DNA of 64,000 nucleotides, from NCBI RefSeq assembly GCF_048403405.1, contig NZ_CP183129.1, one strand, 5' to 3'. Every line of letters begins with the position of its first letter. Within the stretch, counting starts at the first letter, position 1. This DNA is from Escherichia coli (GTDB taxonomy: Bacteria > Pseudomonadota > Gammaproteobacteria > Enterobacterales > Enterobacteriaceae). The translations under genes were made by a program, and so were the position numbers. The notes below the pieces were generated by a model, which was not told where the DNA came from, did no database searches, and saw nothing but the letters and a program-made list of their open reading frames with translations. Of this stretch, positions 2,339 through 62,604 are shown in pieces.

Positions 2339-3511
2339 TTAGCGAACAGCGCGGATGGCGTTAATTAATCCAGCCACACCTTTTTCCAGTTTCGAACGCG
2401 GGCACCCGGCATTGAGACGGACAAAACCACGACCTTCTTCACCGTAGGTATACCCCGGCATGATCGCGACCTTCTCTTGCTCGATAAGCGCTTTTTGCAA
2501 CGCGTTGTCGTCAATATTCAACGGACGTAGATCAATCCAGGCCAGATAAGTGGATTGCGGGATCTGCCAGTTGAGTTCAGGGAACGCGGCGTTCATTTTA
2601 TCTGCGATATACGTCAGGTTATCTTTCAGATAGACGCGTAAGGCATCCAGCCACGGCGCGCCTTGCTGATAGGCGGCGATATGGGCAGTTAACGCCAGTA
2701 CTGAAGGGGAAGAAAGGCCATCACGTCCTTTCAGTGCCGATAAATAGGCATCACGGCTGCTGCTATTTTCTATAATCCCGTAAGCACCGGTCAGGGCGGG
2801 AATATTGAAACTTTTCGATCCCGACGTTAGCAATGCCCAGTCTCCGCGCGCCACATTACTCCAGGGAATATGCGGCTGCTCGCCCCAAACCATATCCATA
2901 TGGATTTCATCGGAAATAACCCGCACACCATGACGCTCGCACAGGTCAGCCATGATCTCCAGCTCATCGCACGTCCACACTTTCCCGGTAGGATTCTGTG
3001 GGCTACACAGGAGCATAATTTTACATTCTGGTTTCGCCAACACGGCTTCCAGCTTGCCCATATCGCAAAACCAGCCGTCAGCCTGCTTCTCTAAAGCAAC
3101 GGGCATTACTGTGCGCTGGTTACCTTCAATGGCCTTGTAAAATGCGTCATAGGCGGGTGTGTGGATCACCACGCCTTCACCTGTTTCAGACCACTGACGA
3201 ATCAGTTCTGAAACCATATAGATAACAGAAGGGCCATACACCACCGATTGCGTATCAATTGCGGTGTAATGCTGGGTGGAAAACCAGTGGGCAATAGCCG
3301 CGAGAAACTCATCGTTTTTCCAGCGGCTGTAGCCAAACACGCCGTGCATCAGGCGCTGATTCAGCGCCTCGATAATGCAGGGGGCAGTGGCAAAATCCAT
3401 GTCTGAAATCGTGAACGGTAACAGGTCAGCAGTGCCGAAACGGTCAGCGACATAATCCCACTGCGTACACCATGTGCCATGACGATCCACGACCTTTGAA
3501 AAATCGAACAT
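2339..3511 (-). CDS. malY: PLP-dependent cystathionine beta-lyase / maltose regulon modulator MalY
   Basis: 390-aa translation recognised as MalY (aminotransferase class I/II fold); immediately downstream of malX as in the malXY operon. Confidence 0.95.
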   Translation of the reverse strand: MFDFSKVVDRHGTWCTQWDYVADRFGTADLLPFTISDMDFATAPCIIEALNQRLMHGVFGYSRWKNDEFLAAIAHWFSTQHYTAIDTQSVVYGPSVIYMVSELIRQWSETGEGVVIHTPAYDAFYKAIEGNQRTVMPVALEKQADGWFCDMGKLEAVLAKPECKIMLLCSPQNPTGKVWTCDELEIMADLCERHGVRVISDEIHMDMVWGEQPHIPWSNVARGDWALLTSGSKSFNIPALTGAYGIIENSSSRDAYLSALKGRDGLSSPSVLALTAHIAAYQQGAPWLDALRVYLKDNLTYIADKMNAAFPELNWQIPQSTYLAWIDLRPLNIDDNALQKALIEQEKVAIMPGYTYGEEGRGFVRLNAGCPRSKLEKGVAGLINAIRAVR

Positions 3512-3520
3512 ATCTTATCC

Positions 3521-6316
<2,796 letters not shown>

Positions 6317-6427
6317 CCCTCTCTTTATCTGCTATACCTGGTAGTGTCCTTTCCTCAAGGTTAATGATAAAAAATGTGGCACACAGGCGGTGCCTTTTAT
6401 TTTTACTGAAGTTCACAGGAGGTTTAT

Positions 6428-7195
6428 GTGTTTAATTCTGACAACCTGAGACTCGACGGAAAATGTGCCATCATCACAGGTGCCGGTGCAGGTATTGGTA
6501 AAGAAATTGCCATTACATTCGCGACAGCTGGCGCATCTGTGGTGGTCAGTGATATTAACGCCGATGCAGCTAATCATGTTGTAGATGAAATTCAACAACT
6601 GGGTGGTCAGGCATTTGCCTGGCGCTGCGATATTACTTCCGAACAGGAACTCTCTGCACTGGCAGACTTTGCCGTCAGTAAGCTGGGTAAAGTTGATATC
6701 CTGGTTAACAACGCCGGTGGCGGTGGGCCTAAACCGTTTGATATGCCAATGGCAGATTTTCGCCGCGCTTATGAACTGAATGTATTTTCTTTTTTCCATC
6801 TGTCACAACTTGTTGCGCCAGAAATGGAAAAAAATGGCGGTGGCGTTATTCTGACCATTACTTCTATGGCGGCAGAAAATAAAAATATAAACATGACCTC
6901 CTATGCATCATCTAAAGCTGCGGCCAGTCATCTGGTCAGAAACATGGCGTTTGACCTGGGTGAAAAAAATATTCGGGTGAATGGCATTGCGCCGGGGGCA
7001 ATATTAACCGATGCCCTGAAATCCGTTATTACACCTGAAATTGAACAAAAAATGTTACAGCACACACCGATTAGACGTCTGGGCCAACCGCAAGATATTG
7101 CTAACGCGGCGCTGTTCCTTTGCTCGCCTGCAGCCAGCTGGGTAAGCGGACAAATTCTCACCGTCTCCGGTGGTGGGGTACAGGAGCTCAATTAA
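6428..7195 (+). CDS. hdhA: 7-alpha-hydroxysteroid dehydrogenase (SDR family)
   Basis: 255-aa SDR with TGAGAGIG cofactor motif and YxxxK active site (YASSKAA); GTG start at 6428 read in sequence (the adjacent ATG at 6426 is out of frame). Confidence 0.95.
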   Translation: MFNSDNLRLDGKCAIITGAGAGIGKEIAITFATAGASVVVSDINADAANHVVDEIQQLGGQAFAWRCDITSEQELSALADFAVSKLGKVDILVNNAGGGGPKPFDMPMADFRRAYELNVFSFFHLSQLVAPEMEKNGGGVILTITSMAAENKNINMTSYASSKAAASHLVRNMAFDLGEKNIRVNGIAPGAILTDALKSVITPEIEQKMLQHTPIRRLGQPQDIANAALFLCSPAASWVSGQILTVSGGGVQELN

Positions 7196-7207
7196 TACAC
7201 TAACGGA

Positions 7208-7238
7208 CCGGTAAACAACCGTGCGTGTTGTTTACCGG
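7208..7238 (+). terminator. inverted repeat downstream of hdhA (putative terminator or REP-like element)
   Basis: Palindrome ccggtaaacaacc-gtgcg-tgttgtttaccgg seen directly after the hdhA stop; no clear T-tract follows, so the assignment is tentative. Confidence 0.35.
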
Positions 7239-7415
7239 GATAAACTCATCAACGTCTCAGCTAAATAACTGGCAGCCAAATCACGGCTATTGGTTAACCA
7301 ATTTCCGAGTGAAAAGTATACGAATAGAGTGTGCCTTCGCACTATTCAACAGCAATGATAGGCGCTCACCTGACAACGCGGTAAACTAGTTATTCACGCT
7401 AACTATAATGGTTTA

Positions 7416-8006
7416 ATGATGGATAACATGCAGACTGAAGCACAACCGACACGGACCTGGATCCTCAATGCTGCCAGAGAGATTTTTTCAGAAAATGGAT
7501 TTCACAGTGCCTCGATGAAAGCCATCTGTAAATCTTGCGCCATTAGTCCCGGGACGCTCTATCACCATTTCATCTCCAAAGAAGCCCTGATTCAGGCGAT
7601 TATCTTACAGGACCAGGAGAGGGCGCTGGCCCGTTTCCGGGAACCGATTGAAGGGATTCATTTCGTTGACTATATGGTCAAGTCTATTGTCTCTCTCACC
7701 CATGAAGCCTTTGGACAACGGGCGCTGGTGGTCGAAATTATGGCGGAAGGGATGCGTAACCCACAGGTCGCCGCCATGCTTAAAAATAAGCATATGACGA
7801 TCACGGAATTTGTTGCCCAGCGGATGCGTGATGCCCAGCAAAAAGGCGAGATAAGCCCAGACATCAACACGGCAATGACTTCACGTTTACTGCTGGATCT
7901 GACCTACGGTGTACTGGCCGATATCGAAGCGGAAGATCTGGCGCGTGAAGCGTCGTTTGCTCAGGGATTACGCGCGATGATTGGCGGTATCTTAACCGCA
8001 TCCTGA
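7416..8006 (+). CDS. uidR: TetR-family repressor of the uid operon
   Basis: 196-aa translation with TetR-type N-terminal HTH; directly upstream of uidA. Confidence 0.95.
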   Translation: MMDNMQTEAQPTRTWILNAAREIFSENGFHSASMKAICKSCAISPGTLYHHFISKEALIQAIILQDQERALARFREPIEGIHFVDYMVKSIVSLTHEAFGQRALVVEIMAEGMRNPQVAAMLKNKHMTITEFVAQRMRDAQQKGEISPDINTAMTSRLLLDLTYGVLADIEAEDLAREASFAQGLRAMIGGILTAS

Positions 8007-8345
8007 TCCTCTCTCTCTTTCCGCGGGCTGGTGACAACTGAGCCCGCGTTTCATATCGTAATTTCTCTGTGCAAAAATTATCCTTCCCGGGTTCGGAGAA
8101 TTCCCCCCAAAATATTCACTGTAGCCATATGTCATGAGAGTTTATCGTTCCCAATATGCTCGAACGAACGTTCGATTGCTTATTTTGTGTCTTATGTCAA
8201 CGCTGTTTTAAAGATTAATGCGATCTATATCACGCTGTGGGTATTGCAGTTTTTGGTTTTTTGATCCCGGTGTCAGTTCTTTTTATTTCCATTTCTCTTC
8301 CATGGGTTTCTCACAGATAACTGTGTGCAACACAGAATTGGTTAA

Positions 8346-11578
<3,233 letters not shown>

Positions 11579-56333: not shown

Positions 56334-56386
56334 CGGCGGCAGAGCAGTCACGGAGTAAAACTGATACCGCCAAACGTCACCAGAAA
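56334..56386 (-). ncRNA. dicF: DicF small regulatory RNA
   Basis: Minus-strand sequence TTTCTGGTGACGTTTGGCGGTATCAGTTTTACTCCGTGACTGCTCTGCCGCC matches my memory of the 53-nt DicF; the exact 3' end is not determinable from sequence. Confidence 0.85.
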
Positions 56387-59753: not shown

Positions 59754-60155
59754 GTGGCAAAAGTTTTTACACAAGAAGAGCGGGAAAAAATTAAAGGGCA
59801 GGTTGTTGAACTCGTACGCCGGAGTGGGCGTGAGACGTTACGGCAACTGGAAGTCAAGACAGGTGCGACAAGATATCTGATGAGCGTTCTCGCAAGAGAG
59901 CTGGTTGCCAGCGGCGATGTATACAACTCTGGTTACGGGTTATTCCCGTCTGAACAGGCGCGTAAGGACTGGCAAAATGCCCGTAAAAAGCTCTCAAGGG
60001 CAAAGCTGAAGAAACCATCTGCGGTTGATCCGGACCTTATCTGGTCATTACCTGACGGAGAAATACGTCGCTACGACAGGCGTCAGAACATAATCTGCCG
60101 CGAGTGCCGGAAGAGTGAAGTTATGCAGCGCATACTGGCATTTTATCAGGGATAA
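59754..60155 (+). CDS. hypothetical prophage protein
   Basis: 133-aa ORF with GTG start and strong AAGGGGGA RBS; basic, contains a CxxC pair (CRECRK); function unknown. Confidence 0.55.
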   Translation: MAKVFTQEEREKIKGQVVELVRRSGRETLRQLEVKTGATRYLMSVLARELVASGDVYNSGYGLFPSEQARKDWQNARKKLSRAKLKKPSAVDPDLIWSLPDGEIRRYDRRQNIICRECRKSEVMQRILAFYQG

Positions 60156-60688
60156 TGTTAGGTATTTTAGACGTTACTAGATTAAAAAGCATTAGTTCAG
60201 GAGTGAATTGACATTCTCATTTTTCATGGCACAGGGTAGATCTGGCGTGGTTGTCCGCTTTGTGCCAACAGCGGACGTTACTAACGAAACTGTGAGTTAA
60301 AAACGGGAGCTGGTCACCTCCATCCCGCGAAATGGAATTCAAAAATGCCCTCATGTACGGTACTTCTAGTCTGATGTGAGCATTTTCGTGGATTTTTTCG
60401 AGCCACTCCAACGAATGATTACATTCAGTTTCGGGCACTAAAACGTCATAAATCCGCAAGTTGAGGAGTAGCGATCAGCCAATTGGTTAAAAAACAGCTT
60501 TAATTCCCTTTTTCAAGCAGGCTCCTTGTCGCACGTCTGGTGCATCCAATTCATTTCAGTTACCCTGATGCCATACTGGCACGGACTAGCTCTCTTAATT
60601 GGCGCTGGTTTGTTAACCTTGTCCGCTGTCGGGTCTTTGTAAGTTGTAATTCCTAAACTAGCATAATTTTATTATAAGGCCTCTTACT

Positions 60689-61714
60689 ATGCACATTTTA
60701 TCTGTTTCAAAAAAGGAAGTTGGAAGAGCTGGGGATAGATTAGTTTCTCAGTTTGGTACAGGTGAAAAATATAAAGAGGAAGATGTACAAATTCTTCATG
60801 AGTGGAGGATGTTGCATTTATATCCTTTAAGTAAAATACAATTTTATATGGAAAGAGAGGCTATTTCCTTAAACAAAAATGCGTTACTATCCTCTAGAAT
60901 TAAGAGGATGCCTTCCATTGTTACTAAGCTTTCTAGATTTCCTGATATGAAGTTAAATAAGATGCAGGATCTTGGTGGGTGCCGGGCTATTTTAAATAAT
61001 CTGGATCAAGTGTATGATTTAGTTAATAAAATAAAATCATCTAAATTCTCACATGAACTAGTTAGAATGGATGATTACATGATAGACGTGAAAGATTCTG
61101 GTTATAGAAGCTTTCATATGGTCTATTCATTCCAAAATAAAAAATTTCCATCTTTAAATGGGTTGCGCATTGAAATGCAAATAAGAACAGCTATTCAACA
61201 TAGCTGGGCTACAGCAGTTGAAATGGTTGGTTTGTTTCGAAAGGAATCATTGAAATCTGGTTTTGGTGATGCAAGATGGCTTAGGTTTTTTGAATTGGTA
61301 TCAGAGCTTTTTTATAAACTTGAGTATGAAAAAGAACCATCTGGGAGTTATATAAAAATATCAGAAGAATTAAGTTATTTATCCGTCGAGTTGAATGTTT
61401 TCGATATATTAGCTGCTTACAATGCCGTAGTTAGCCATATTGAGGGTAGCAAAAAATATGATAAAGGACTTTGCATAATTGTTGTTGATACCATAAAGCG
61501 GAATATAAATATAAAGAGCTTCGAAAATCACAATCATGCGAAGGCGGCAGAAGCTTATGTCGAGTCTGAAAAATACTGCGCGGAAAATAAAGGCTGTGAA
61601 GTGGCTATGGTTTCTGTTAGTTCAATTAGTGAATTAAAAAATGCATATCCTGCTTACTTTTTAGATACGAAAACTTTTTTAAATTATCTCAGTAGGTATG
61701 TTTTTATAAAATAA
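60689..61714 (+). CDS. RelA/SpoT-domain nucleotide pyrophosphokinase (toxSAS-like; candidate fused CapRel-type toxin-antitoxin defence protein)
   Basis: 341-aa protein with the four synthetase motifs in order: RIKRMPSIVTK, DLGGCRAIL, YRSFHMVY, EMQIRTAIQHSWATAVE. No HD hydrolase, TGS or ACT domains; about 130 C-terminal residues unassigned. The gene is markedly AT-rich compared with its flanks. Confidence 0.8.
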   Translation: MHILSVSKKEVGRAGDRLVSQFGTGEKYKEEDVQILHEWRMLHLYPLSKIQFYMEREAISLNKNALLSSRIKRMPSIVTKLSRFPDMKLNKMQDLGGCRAILNNLDQVYDLVNKIKSSKFSHELVRMDDYMIDVKDSGYRSFHMVYSFQNKKFPSLNGLRIEMQIRTAIQHSWATAVEMVGLFRKESLKSGFGDARWLRFFELVSELFYKLEYEKEPSGSYIKISEELSYLSVELNVFDILAAYNAVVSHIEGSKKYDKGLCIIVVDTIKRNINIKSFENHNHAKAAEAYVESEKYCAENKGCEVAMVSVSSISELKNAYPAYFLDTKTFLNYLSRYVFIK

Positions 61715-62448
61715 AAAATGTTATCTGGAGTGGTCTGAATTCTACTAACTTAGTTTTTTCAGACCGCTTCTGACCACAATGGCCTGTGAGGTTCTGCTGC
61801 TAGTCAACATAAAATAACAAAGCCGGCAGGTGGTGGTTGTTGTAAAGTTATTCAATGACATTCATGGAGGCTTAAGCGAATTATTTGTCCCTGGTCGGTA
61901 TGGTGGCAACAGCTTGTTGCGAGAATTTGGCTAATTTGGACTGACTTCCGCTCCTTGCTCAAAGCGGACTAGAAGGTTAGCTTGTGTCGGACTTTGCGTA
62001 TTAAAAGAAGTGCTGGTGGTGACTAGTGGTTGAGCCCCATTTCCACAGAAAAAATCAGAGAAACTATACCCAATAGTTGTATTGAATCACTGACGAGACA
62101 GCCTCATATTCATCAGGACTGGTGTACGTCCAATACAGGAGGTTGTGGTGCTGGTTCTCAAATGTGCGCTGGCTATTACGGCTGTAATGGCGATTTATTG
62201 TCTTGCTATTGTTCTTATGGATCGCCTTTCTGACTGATTTCATATTGGCGAGGTAAAGGTAGTTAAGTAGAATGGCTGCGGGTGCTTGAGGCTATCTGCC
62301 TCGGGCATGAACACCAAAGGCAGATAGAGAAAAGCCCCAGTTAACATTACGCGTCCTGCAAGACGCTTAACATTAATCTGAGGCCAATTTCATGCTAGAC
62401 ACATGTAGGTTAGCCTCTTACGTGCCGGAAGGCAAGGAGAAGCAGGCT

Positions 62449-62604
62449 ATGAAGCAGCAAAAGGCGATGTTAATCGCCCTGATCGTCATCTGTTTAACCG
62501 TCATAGTGACGGCACTGGTAACGAGGAAAGACCTCTGCGAGGTACGAATCCGAACCGGCCAGACGGAGGTCGCTGTCTTCACAGCTTACGAACCTGAGGA
62601 GTAA
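62449..62604 (+). CDS. hokD: Hok/Gef-family membrane toxin
   Basis: 51-aa protein MKQQKAMLIALIVICLTVIVTALVTRKDLCEVRIRTGQTEVAVFTAYEPEE, matching my memory of HokD; AAGGAGA RBS; upstream fold-back elements typical of hok mRNAs. No relB/relE ORFs are present upstream. Confidence 0.9.
   Translation: MKQQKAMLIALIVICLTVIVTALVTRKDLCEVRIRTGQTEVAVFTAYEPEE

Follow-up and report, generated by a model that had tools for sequence, protein, structure and literature searches.

The stretch of DNA analysed here, referred to as the window, comprises 64,000 nucleotides of Escherichia coli contig NZ_CP183129.1 (RefSeq assembly GCF_048403405.1) and matches E. coli chromosomes at 100% identity. It contains a lambdoid prophage of the Qin type located beside rspB, which is the site of the cryptic prophage Qin in strain K-12. 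Within this prophage, directly upstream of hokD, an open reading frame (ORF) with an ATG start was confirmed on the + strand at 60689..61714. The ORF encodes a protein of 341 amino acids (aa) and is identical to RefSeq gene WP_000547812.1, annotated as ‘RelA/SpoT domain-containing protein’. An initial annotation of the window, made from the letters alone, had proposed that this gene is a fused, CapRel-like toxic small alarmone synthetase (toxSAS). On the evidence presented below, we consider it probable that the product of this gene is a CapRel-family toxin-antitoxin in one polypeptide, that is a phage-triggered, tRNA-pyrophosphorylating abortive infection system carried as cargo by the prophage. 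The coordinates of all features are collected in Table 1.

The ORF has a GC content of 0.326 (0.267 at third codon positions), compared to 0.459 for the prophage DNA on its left, 0.496 on its right and 0.492 for the whole window. The gene is thus more AT-rich than its flanks, as the initial annotation had pointed out. Copies that are 98% identical are found in Yokenella and Superficieibacter; relative to these, the E. coli copy carries 20-23 synonymous and 6 non-synonymous codon changes, and 19-22 of the 26-29 base changes fall on third codon positions. The non-coding flanks are more divergent than the ORF, with 5.4% of the leader and 8.4% of the trailer differing from Yokenella. Because changes in the ORF are mostly synonymous and the non-coding leader and trailer diverge more, the ORF must have been kept by selection. 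It is a genuine gene under purifying selection and not a chance ORF.

The catalytic half of the protein is readily recognized. A Pfam search of the 341-aa protein identifies RelA_SpoT (PF04607) at residues 69-175 (E = 1.1e-17) as the sole domain, with no HD, TGS or ACT domain. The four synthetase motifs are located in the order originally described, namely RIKRMPSIVTK (residues 70-80), DLGGCR (94-99), YRSFH (139-143) and EMQIRTAIQHSW (162-173). Both the motif order and the lack of hydrolase and regulatory domains proposed in the initial annotation are therefore upheld.

Family assignment was obtained from several independent searches. Using phmmer against the sequences of the Protein Data Bank (PDB), the best match is 7ZTB/9ERV (E = 2.6e-34, query residues 6-338 against chain residues 14-369), which the entries describe as the tRNA pyrophosphokinase CapRel of Salmonella phage SJ46. 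CapRel-SJ46 is known from this phage and from P1-like prophages of E. coli (PMC9712102, 2022; PMC11578894, 2024). With BLASTP, identity to CapRel-SJ46 is 28% over residues 4-338, covering 98% of the query. At the level of profiles, PDC-S33 of PADLOC matches residues 4-338 at E = 5e-119 and phrog_4773 of PHROG matches the full length at E = 5e-134. CapRel-SJ46, used as a control, gives full-length matches to the same two profiles (7e-87 and 1e-144, respectively). Since two independent profile libraries match both proteins, we place them in one family. Together with the full-length phmmer match, the shared PDC-S33 and phrog_4773 profiles substantiate the fused CapRel-like architecture that had been suspected.

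To follow individual residues, we used a family alignment of 62 sequences. R70 and R99, which correspond to SJ46 R79 and R116 and bind the adenine of the donor ATP, are invariant (62/62), and so is Y139 (62/62), the equivalent of the G-loop tyrosine Y155 of SJ46. D94, E162 and Q164 are likewise invariant. Judging from this alignment, the N-terminal pyrophosphotransferase domain is predicted to retain every residue known to be necessary for ATP binding and catalysis.

The C-terminal half, left unassigned by Pfam, was addressed by structure prediction. An AlphaFold2 model of the full-length protein, built from the 62-sequence alignment, reached a mean predicted local distance difference test score (pLDDT) of 90.9 and a predicted template modelling score of 0.88. 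Past the core, the model contains helices at residues 195-213, 220-234 and 237-246, then a short strand (250-252), strands at 260-267 and 272-278, a helix at 283-299 and a strand at 303-310. The tail consists of two short helices (313-319 and 321-324) at a YXXY motif and a last helix at 328-338. In CapRel-SJ46, the published layout runs from anchor helices through a pseudo-zinc-finger of three strands, the last two of which enclose a helix, to a YXXY hinge and a C-terminal helix (PMC9712102). On the basis of the model, the C-terminal half of the 341-aa protein is predicted to have the fold of the CapRel antitoxin/sensor, complete with anchors, pseudo-zinc-finger, YXXY motif and terminal helix.

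Structural comparison supports this assignment. Searching the PDB with the full model using Foldseek, three CapRel chains head the list (E = 5e-20 to 9e-19, alignment over about 356 columns, template modelling (TM) score 0.68), followed by the small alarmone synthetases RelP and RelQ, which match over the catalytic half only. Deviation from the CapRel chains (root mean square, rmsd) is 10-11 Å for the full length and 3.9-5.1 Å for the C-terminal part alone. Such a high full-length rmsd next to a low C-terminal one suggests that the model and the open crystal form of CapRel differ in how the two domains are oriented. When residues 190-341 (152 aa) are modelled on their own (pLDDT 79.4), the only significant matches in the PDB are again the three CapRel chains (E = 1.2e-5 to 4.1e-5, TM score 0.60-0.73); the fourth match has an E value of 0.05. 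The C-terminus alone also aligns with the C-terminus of SJ46 by BLASTP (E = 1e-7). The comparison with the CapRel C-terminal domain that the initial annotation had put forward as a check is accordingly positive.

The C-terminal half combines a conserved motif with a strongly variable surface. YPAY at residues 320-323 (nucleotides 61646-61657) aligns with the YXXY autoinhibition motif of SJ46, Y352-Y355. In the family alignment Y320 (SJ46 Y352) is kept in 60/62 sequences, Y323 (Y355) in 57/62 and the scaffold residue A319 (A351) in 59/62. Identity to distant relatives amounts to 42-61% in the core (residues 61-200) and 33-54% in the tail (306-341), and drops to 12-30% for residues 256-305; the same trend is seen within the close enterobacterial clade. 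Published work on CapRel describes the antitoxin/sensor region as its least conserved portion, the one by which phage specificity is set (PMC9712102, PMC11578894, PMC13423816). The variability of the anchors and pseudo-zinc-finger, next to a conserved core and tail, agrees with this pattern. The C-terminal 147 residues, which hold 20 acidic and 18 basic residues, have an isoelectric point (pI) of 5.97.

We also considered a housekeeping role for the protein, as a small alarmone synthetase of the RelQ/RelP/RelV-like kind, or an origin as a piece of a long RelA/SpoT enzyme. Weak NCBIfam matches to YjbM (NF053588, 57.6 bits) and RelA (NF008124, 21.9 bits) would favour such an origin, but both scores are far below their cut-offs of 320 and 728 bits. 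A protein search returned 261 relatives, and lengths were taken from the 120 listed. Among these listed matches, relatives are 214-400 aa long, nearly all of them 320-400 aa, and none carries a hydrolase domain. When one genome per species was scanned, at least 586 species proved to have a relative, including Proteobacteria, Cyanobacteria, Actinobacteria and Firmicutes, a taxonomic range that fits the origin of the name CapRel (PMC7229694). The best 80 genome loci cover nearly the whole query, from residue ~3-33 to 325-341. These lengths and this coverage rule out a fragment of a long RelA/SpoT enzyme. Neither of the two computable outcomes that the initial annotation had named as contrary to its proposal, lack of a RelA_SpoT match or homologues of the long type, was observed. 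Furthermore, the 150 additional residues form the CapRel antitoxin domain, and the gene is AT-rich prophage cargo present in less than 1% of genomes. In view of the NCBIfam scores, the lengths of the relatives and the CapRel fold of the C-terminus, the housekeeping or fragment explanation is refuted, and we attach next to no credence to it.

A different question is whether the protein acts alone. In a two-gene system it could serve as the effector, as in PANGU type I, or it could be the toxin in a bicistronic toxSAS pair. The PANGU effector Pag1B is nearly of the same size (37.5 kDa) and likewise has a helical linker between its synthetase and C-terminal domains; CapRel and PhRel also exist in unfused form, with antitoxins encoded separately (PMC7229694). 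We therefore clustered all ORFs of at least 60 aa located within 2.5 kb of the gene at the best 80 loci. No conserved neighbour gene emerged, any neighbour family being present in at most 4 of the 80 loci, which rules out a two-gene toxSAS toxin-antitoxin pair. The mobile unit of 1.68 kb described below holds the CapRel ORF alone, the adjacent DUF977 gene belonging to the prophage backbone. The initial annotation had noted the lack of a separate antitoxin ORF; indeed, no plausible partner or antitoxin ORF was found in the 1.68-kb module, where the leader and trailer ORFs of at least 20 aa are short and unsupported. In addition, the C-terminal domain is not markedly acidic and adopts a CapRel antitoxin fold with a YXXY motif. 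The lack of a partner gene and this CapRel-type fold rule out a PANGU-type pair, and dependence on a partner is, overall, highly improbable.

One further ORF was examined as a hidden antitoxin, an 80-aa ORF on the minus strand (60217-60459), and was rejected since it crosses the left boundary of the module, is truncated and is unsupported. Its first 66 residues are shared with Yokenella with 7 substitutions, after which the two sequences diverge. It has no NCBIfam match and its PADLOC match is at chance level (E = 0.02). This ORF is probably a remnant or non-coding.

For a fused CapRel-type protein, the course of events can be proposed by analogy with CapRel-SJ46 and CapRel-Ebc, from which the individual steps of autoinhibition, trigger, tRNA modification and abortion are transferred. 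In the uninfected cell, the C-terminal domain would fold onto the enzyme so that its YPAY turn (Y320, Y323) sits between R70 and R99, leaving the ATP donor site blocked. When another phage infects, one of its proteins, either by itself or in complex with a host protein, would bind the variable anchor/pseudo-zinc-finger surface (approximately residues 195-310) and hold the enzyme open. The open enzyme would then use ATP to pyrophosphorylate tRNAs at their 3' CCA end. As modified tRNAs could not be charged, translation would stop and the infected lysogen would yield no phage. Such abortive infection would shield both the sister cells and the resident prophage. With a sensor that is about 20% identical to that of SJ46 and differs in charge, the triggers of SJ46 and Ebc are unlikely to apply here. 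As the binding surface is not conserved, the SJ46 triggers, the SECphi27 capsid protein and Bas11 Gp54, are probably not those of the 341-aa protein.

The chemistry could differ within the same architecture. Instead of modifying tRNA, the enzyme might produce a toxic alarmone, either (pp)pApp or (p)ppGpp, with depletion of ATP and GTP. The core is a generic RelA_SpoT fold whose next structural matches are the (p)ppGpp synthetases RelP and RelQ, the GRel toxSAS Pag1B of similar size makes pppGpp (bioRxiv 10.64898/2026.04.06.716658), and the substrate cannot be read from sequence with the methods used. The text of the 2022 CapRel paper provides no mappable list of tRNA-binding residues from which the substrate could be predicted (PMC9712102). 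Nevertheless, a published rule connects the mode of neutralisation to the target. Neutralisation at the donor site by a pseudo-zinc-finger domain (pZFD) with YXXY pairs with tRNA-targeting toxSAS, while toxSAS that make alarmones are countered at the acceptor site, by Tis1-like domains (PMC11782079). The 341-aa protein is of the pZFD/YXXY type, and its sole full-length relative in structure and sequence is the tRNA pyrophosphokinase CapRel. Following the published donor-site rule, we prefer tRNA over an alarmone as the substrate and regard alarmone synthesis as unlikely.

Several points weigh against a phage-triggered CapRel system at this locus. Toxicity, autoinhibition, substrate and phage protection are all transferred from a relative that is 28% identical overall, with 35% identity in the core and about 20% in the sensor region. 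Among the interface residues, four differ from SJ46 (A77 to S68, V338 to A306, L339 to M307 and A341 to S309), and substitution at these scaffold residues activates CapRel-SJ46; the changes are conservative and the states S68, A306, M307 and S309 are common in the family alignment. The gene is rare, being carried by 40 of 5426 complete E. coli genomes (<1%). Finally, no convincing sigma-70 promoter was found by scanning upstream of the ATG, so that expression is only presumed; in the scan for promoters and terminators, the number of sites was not above that in shuffled sequence.

This rarity and the lack of an identified promoter also bear on another explanation, namely that the gene is intact with no role in phage defence and serves as a prophage-stabilising or selfish toxin module, or as silent cargo. 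The position in the prophage is relevant to this question. The genes follow the order dicA-like repressor, cro-like regulator, ydaT, replication gene, DUF977, CapRel gene, hokD and rem. hokD lies directly downstream of the CapRel gene, and in K-12 it is relB-relE that directly precedes hokD. With the prophage adjoining rspB and the gene directly upstream of hokD, the correspondence to the relBE position of Qin suggested in the initial annotation holds. Homology to K-12 restarts at ~62434, at the ribosome-binding site of hokD. The flanks are widespread in E. coli, unlike the gene itself, and the DUF977 gene (133 aa, ending at 60155) is prophage backbone, present whatever the cargo. In other strains, the interval between DUF977 and hokD (~60160-62430) contains a SIR2-family gene, DUF5677, QueH, an alpha/beta hydrolase, DUF7167 with small ORFs, or a methyltransferase. 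As the cargo differs across strains, this interval is an exchangeable cargo position. Some of it, such as SIR2 and DUF5677, is candidate defence or accessory cargo, a setting that favours the CapRel interpretation.

That the slot also takes non-defence cargo (QueH, alpha/beta hydrolase), and that K-12 has relBE at the same place, is consistent with a gene that has no role in defence. On the other hand, a fused toxin-antitoxin has no separate antitoxin and so could not act by differential decay. Protection against phages is documented for the characterised family members SJ46, Ebc and Kp (PMC9712102). Here, purifying selection acts on the ORF, its leader and trailer move with it between genera, and the fast-evolving sensor region fits an arms race. 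Overall, we judge a non-defence role to be quite improbable, and retain phage-triggered abortive infection as the probable function of the CapRel gene.

The gene travels as part of a small defined unit. A segment of 1.68 kb (60262-61943) is 95% identical in Yokenella regensburgei and Superficieibacter electus, and the CapRel ORF is the only plausible gene in the unit shared by the three genera. In Yokenella, the module is located not in this prophage but beside a SymE-like gene, in a small chromosomal island flanked by cobT and an L,D-transpeptidase gene. The 64-kb window has just two occurrences of the 24-nt pattern GTCCGCT-N10-AGCGGAC, one at either end of the mobile unit. In shuffled sequence a mean of 0.17 matches was obtained and two matches appeared in 2 of 100 shuffles, for a pattern that was derived post hoc from the data. 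The left junction in Yokenella carries the palindrome with two mismatches (locus 4564-4587). Superficieibacter has it at the left junction and in further copies at or beyond the downstream junction (locus 4564-4587, 7787-7810, 8567-8590 and 8609-8632). In Yokenella, the right-end sequence repeats after a second cargo gene, and the palindrome there fails the two-mismatch search. In another E. coli strain, the palindrome is found at the right end of the DUF5677 cargo (locus 3314-3337). Other cargo types end at different points. The palindrome may be a boundary or recombination element for cargo exchange.

Table 1. Features of the CapRel gene and its module in the window (aa, amino acids; CDS, coding sequence; strand ‘.’, not assigned).
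Feature	Position	Strand	Basis
CDS of the probable CapRel-family fused toxSAS toxin-antitoxin, 341 aa	60689..61714	+	profiles, PDB homology, RefSeq identity
Three N-terminal helices, residues 1-61; W39, R40, H43, P46 and L47 conserved	60689..60871	+	alignment, AlphaFold2
toxSYNTH (RelA_SpoT) catalytic core, residues 62-190	60872..61258	+	Pfam, alignment, AlphaFold2
Three predicted anchor helices, residues 195-246, belonging to the variable sensor region	61271..61426	+	AlphaFold2, identity profile
Predicted pseudo-zinc-finger-like domain, residues 250-310; most variable part together with the anchors	61436..61618	+	AlphaFold2, Foldseek, identity profile
Conserved tail, residues 313-341, with YPAY and C-terminal helix	61625..61711	+	alignment, AlphaFold2
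Non-coding leader, presumed promoter carrier	60262..60688	+	moves with the gene, 94.6% identical in Yokenella
Non-coding trailer; GGTCTGAA...TTCAGACC inverted repeat directly past the stop codon	61715..61943	+	moves with the gene, 91.6% identical in Yokenella
Left boundary palindrome GTCCGCT-N10-AGCGGAC, 0 mismatches	60253..60276	.	pattern search, edge of exchangeable module
Right boundary palindrome TTCCGCT-N10-AGCGGAC, 1 mismatch	61946..61969	.	pattern search, other edge of module

Additional observations were made around the module and its counterparts. The Yokenella island contains, besides the SymE-like gene (58 bits against the SymE model, below the cut-off), an unannotated gene of 291 aa and a gene of 394 aa with weak matches to PADLOC E2 models; this Yokenella regensburgei island (locus positions 4115-10062) may be a defence island. 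In E. coli GPEC1258, a chicken isolate (NZ_CM142782.1, 4887899-4890565), the match to window positions 60400-62000 is split into two pieces by an insertion of IS903B (IS5-like), which may have disrupted the gene or its flank there.

Rfam gave no match inside the 1.68-kb module, sok and DicF being the sole matches in the window. The hokD gene (62449-62604, +) has a full upstream region with a sok match at 62280-62454 (+, 117 bits). In K-12 Qin the space upstream of hokD is occupied by relBE, and therefore the hok/sok locus here is more complete than in K-12. The DicF small RNA match (RF00039, 72.5 bits) lies in the dicB region at 56334-56385 (-), as expected for a Qin-type element. Finally, an ORF of 67 aa with a TTG start and a Cys/Gly-rich tail (…CGAGSQMCAGYYGCNGDLLSCYCSYGSPF) is located at 62030-62233 (+), where the sequence upstream of hok is conserved; RefSeq does not annotate this ORF, which may have arisen by chance.

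Full-text searches found no published report on WP_000547812.1, PDC-S33 or a CapRel of Qin prophages, an absence that is not proof, and WP_000547812.1 is absent from the supplements of the 2022 CapRel paper. The CapRel family itself has been known and mechanistically characterised since 2022. Every membership test that could be computed assigns the 341-aa protein to it, and the protein is a divergent further member rather than a new system. Current understanding is thus unchanged and a known family is extended, with a defence gene of a named family added to the relBE/hokD position of Qin-type prophages, which is shown here to be a cargo-exchange slot.

Beyond this, we raise a more speculative idea, to which we give limited credence. 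The 341-aa protein may stand for an enterobacterial/Vibrio/Aeromonas clade of CapRel whose sensor half is no longer recognizably related to that of SJ46 and Ebc (about 20% identity, near-neutral instead of basic) and which may therefore read a class of phage or phage-host signal new to CapRel. The palindrome-bracketed 1.68-kb cassette may also move between the DUF977-hokD slot of lambdoid prophages and chromosomal islands of other genera. If true, the bracketed cassette would represent a hairpin-guided exchange route for defence genes. CapRel is among the best-understood immunity proteins that directly recognize phage proteins, and all mechanistic work on it rests on one clade (SJ46, Ebc and Kp). 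With its catalytic and predicted autoinhibitory elements kept and a sensor surface that is almost wholly different, the E. coli prophage copy would be a good test case. It could tell how widely a single scaffold can be retargeted and which other phage or host-phage signals it is able to read.

Compared to known systems, the 341-aa protein differs from the housekeeping enzymes. Long RelA/SpoT homologues (about 700-750 aa) combine an HD or pseudo-hydrolase domain with TGS and ACT/RRM domains, whereas only RelA_SpoT is present here. RelQ/YjbM and RelP (about 200-250 aa) consist of the catalytic domain only, to which a C-terminal domain of 150 residues is added in our protein.

PANGU type I consists of two genes, encoding Pag1A, a sensor of about 40 kDa that is a nucleoid-associated protein (NAP), and the GRel toxSAS effector Pag1B. 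In Pag1B the NAP activator is bound by a C-terminal domain that mimics DNA and is acidic, the synthetase domain has no activity in isolation, and pppGpp is made (bioRxiv 10.64898/2026.04.06.716658). Pag1B, compared here by its description only, resembles the 341-aa protein in size, in its layout, with a toxSYNTH domain at the N-terminus joined through a helical linker to a regulatory domain at the C-terminus, and in its role in anti-phage defence, which is presumed for ours. In contrast, the C-terminal 147 residues of the 341-aa protein are not markedly acidic and have a CapRel-like predicted fold, and the gene is flanked by the DUF977 gene and hokD with no adjacent NAP gene.

Bicistronic toxSAS pairs include PhRel/ATphRel (gp29/gp30 of mycobacteriophage Phrann), unfused CapRel and FaRel2/ATfaRel2 (PMC7229694, PMC11782079). 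They have a toxSYNTH toxin that a pZFD/YXXY element neutralises at the ATP donor site, an arrangement predicted for the 341-aa protein as well; Phrann gp29 gives a weak tblastn match (26.5% over residues 67-259). In these pairs toxin and antitoxin are separate genes, whereas here one polypeptide is encoded and no partner ORF is present.

The closest parallels are the fused CapRel proteins. CapRel-Ebc of Enterobacter chengduensis, which senses T7 Gp0.4 bound to FtsZ and is 70% identical to SJ46 (PMC13423816), is also a fused CapRel, and its release from autoinhibition, as described (PMC13423816), would by analogy be the same mechanism. Ebc, compared by description only, belongs to the SJ46 clade and the 341-aa protein lies outside of it. 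Relative to CapRel-SJ46, our protein is shorter by 32 residues, a difference due mostly to deletions within a core loop and the sensor domain, its C-terminal half has a near-neutral pI of 6.0 while that of SJ46 is basic (pI 9.3), and it is carried by a lambdoid Qin-type prophage rather than a P1-like phage. The two proteins nevertheless share the domain order throughout, the ATP-site arginines, the G-loop tyrosine, the YXXY motif and the C-terminal helix, as well as the predicted anchor and pseudo-zinc-finger fold, and both are encoded by a single gene on a temperate phage and matched by the same PADLOC and PHROG profiles.

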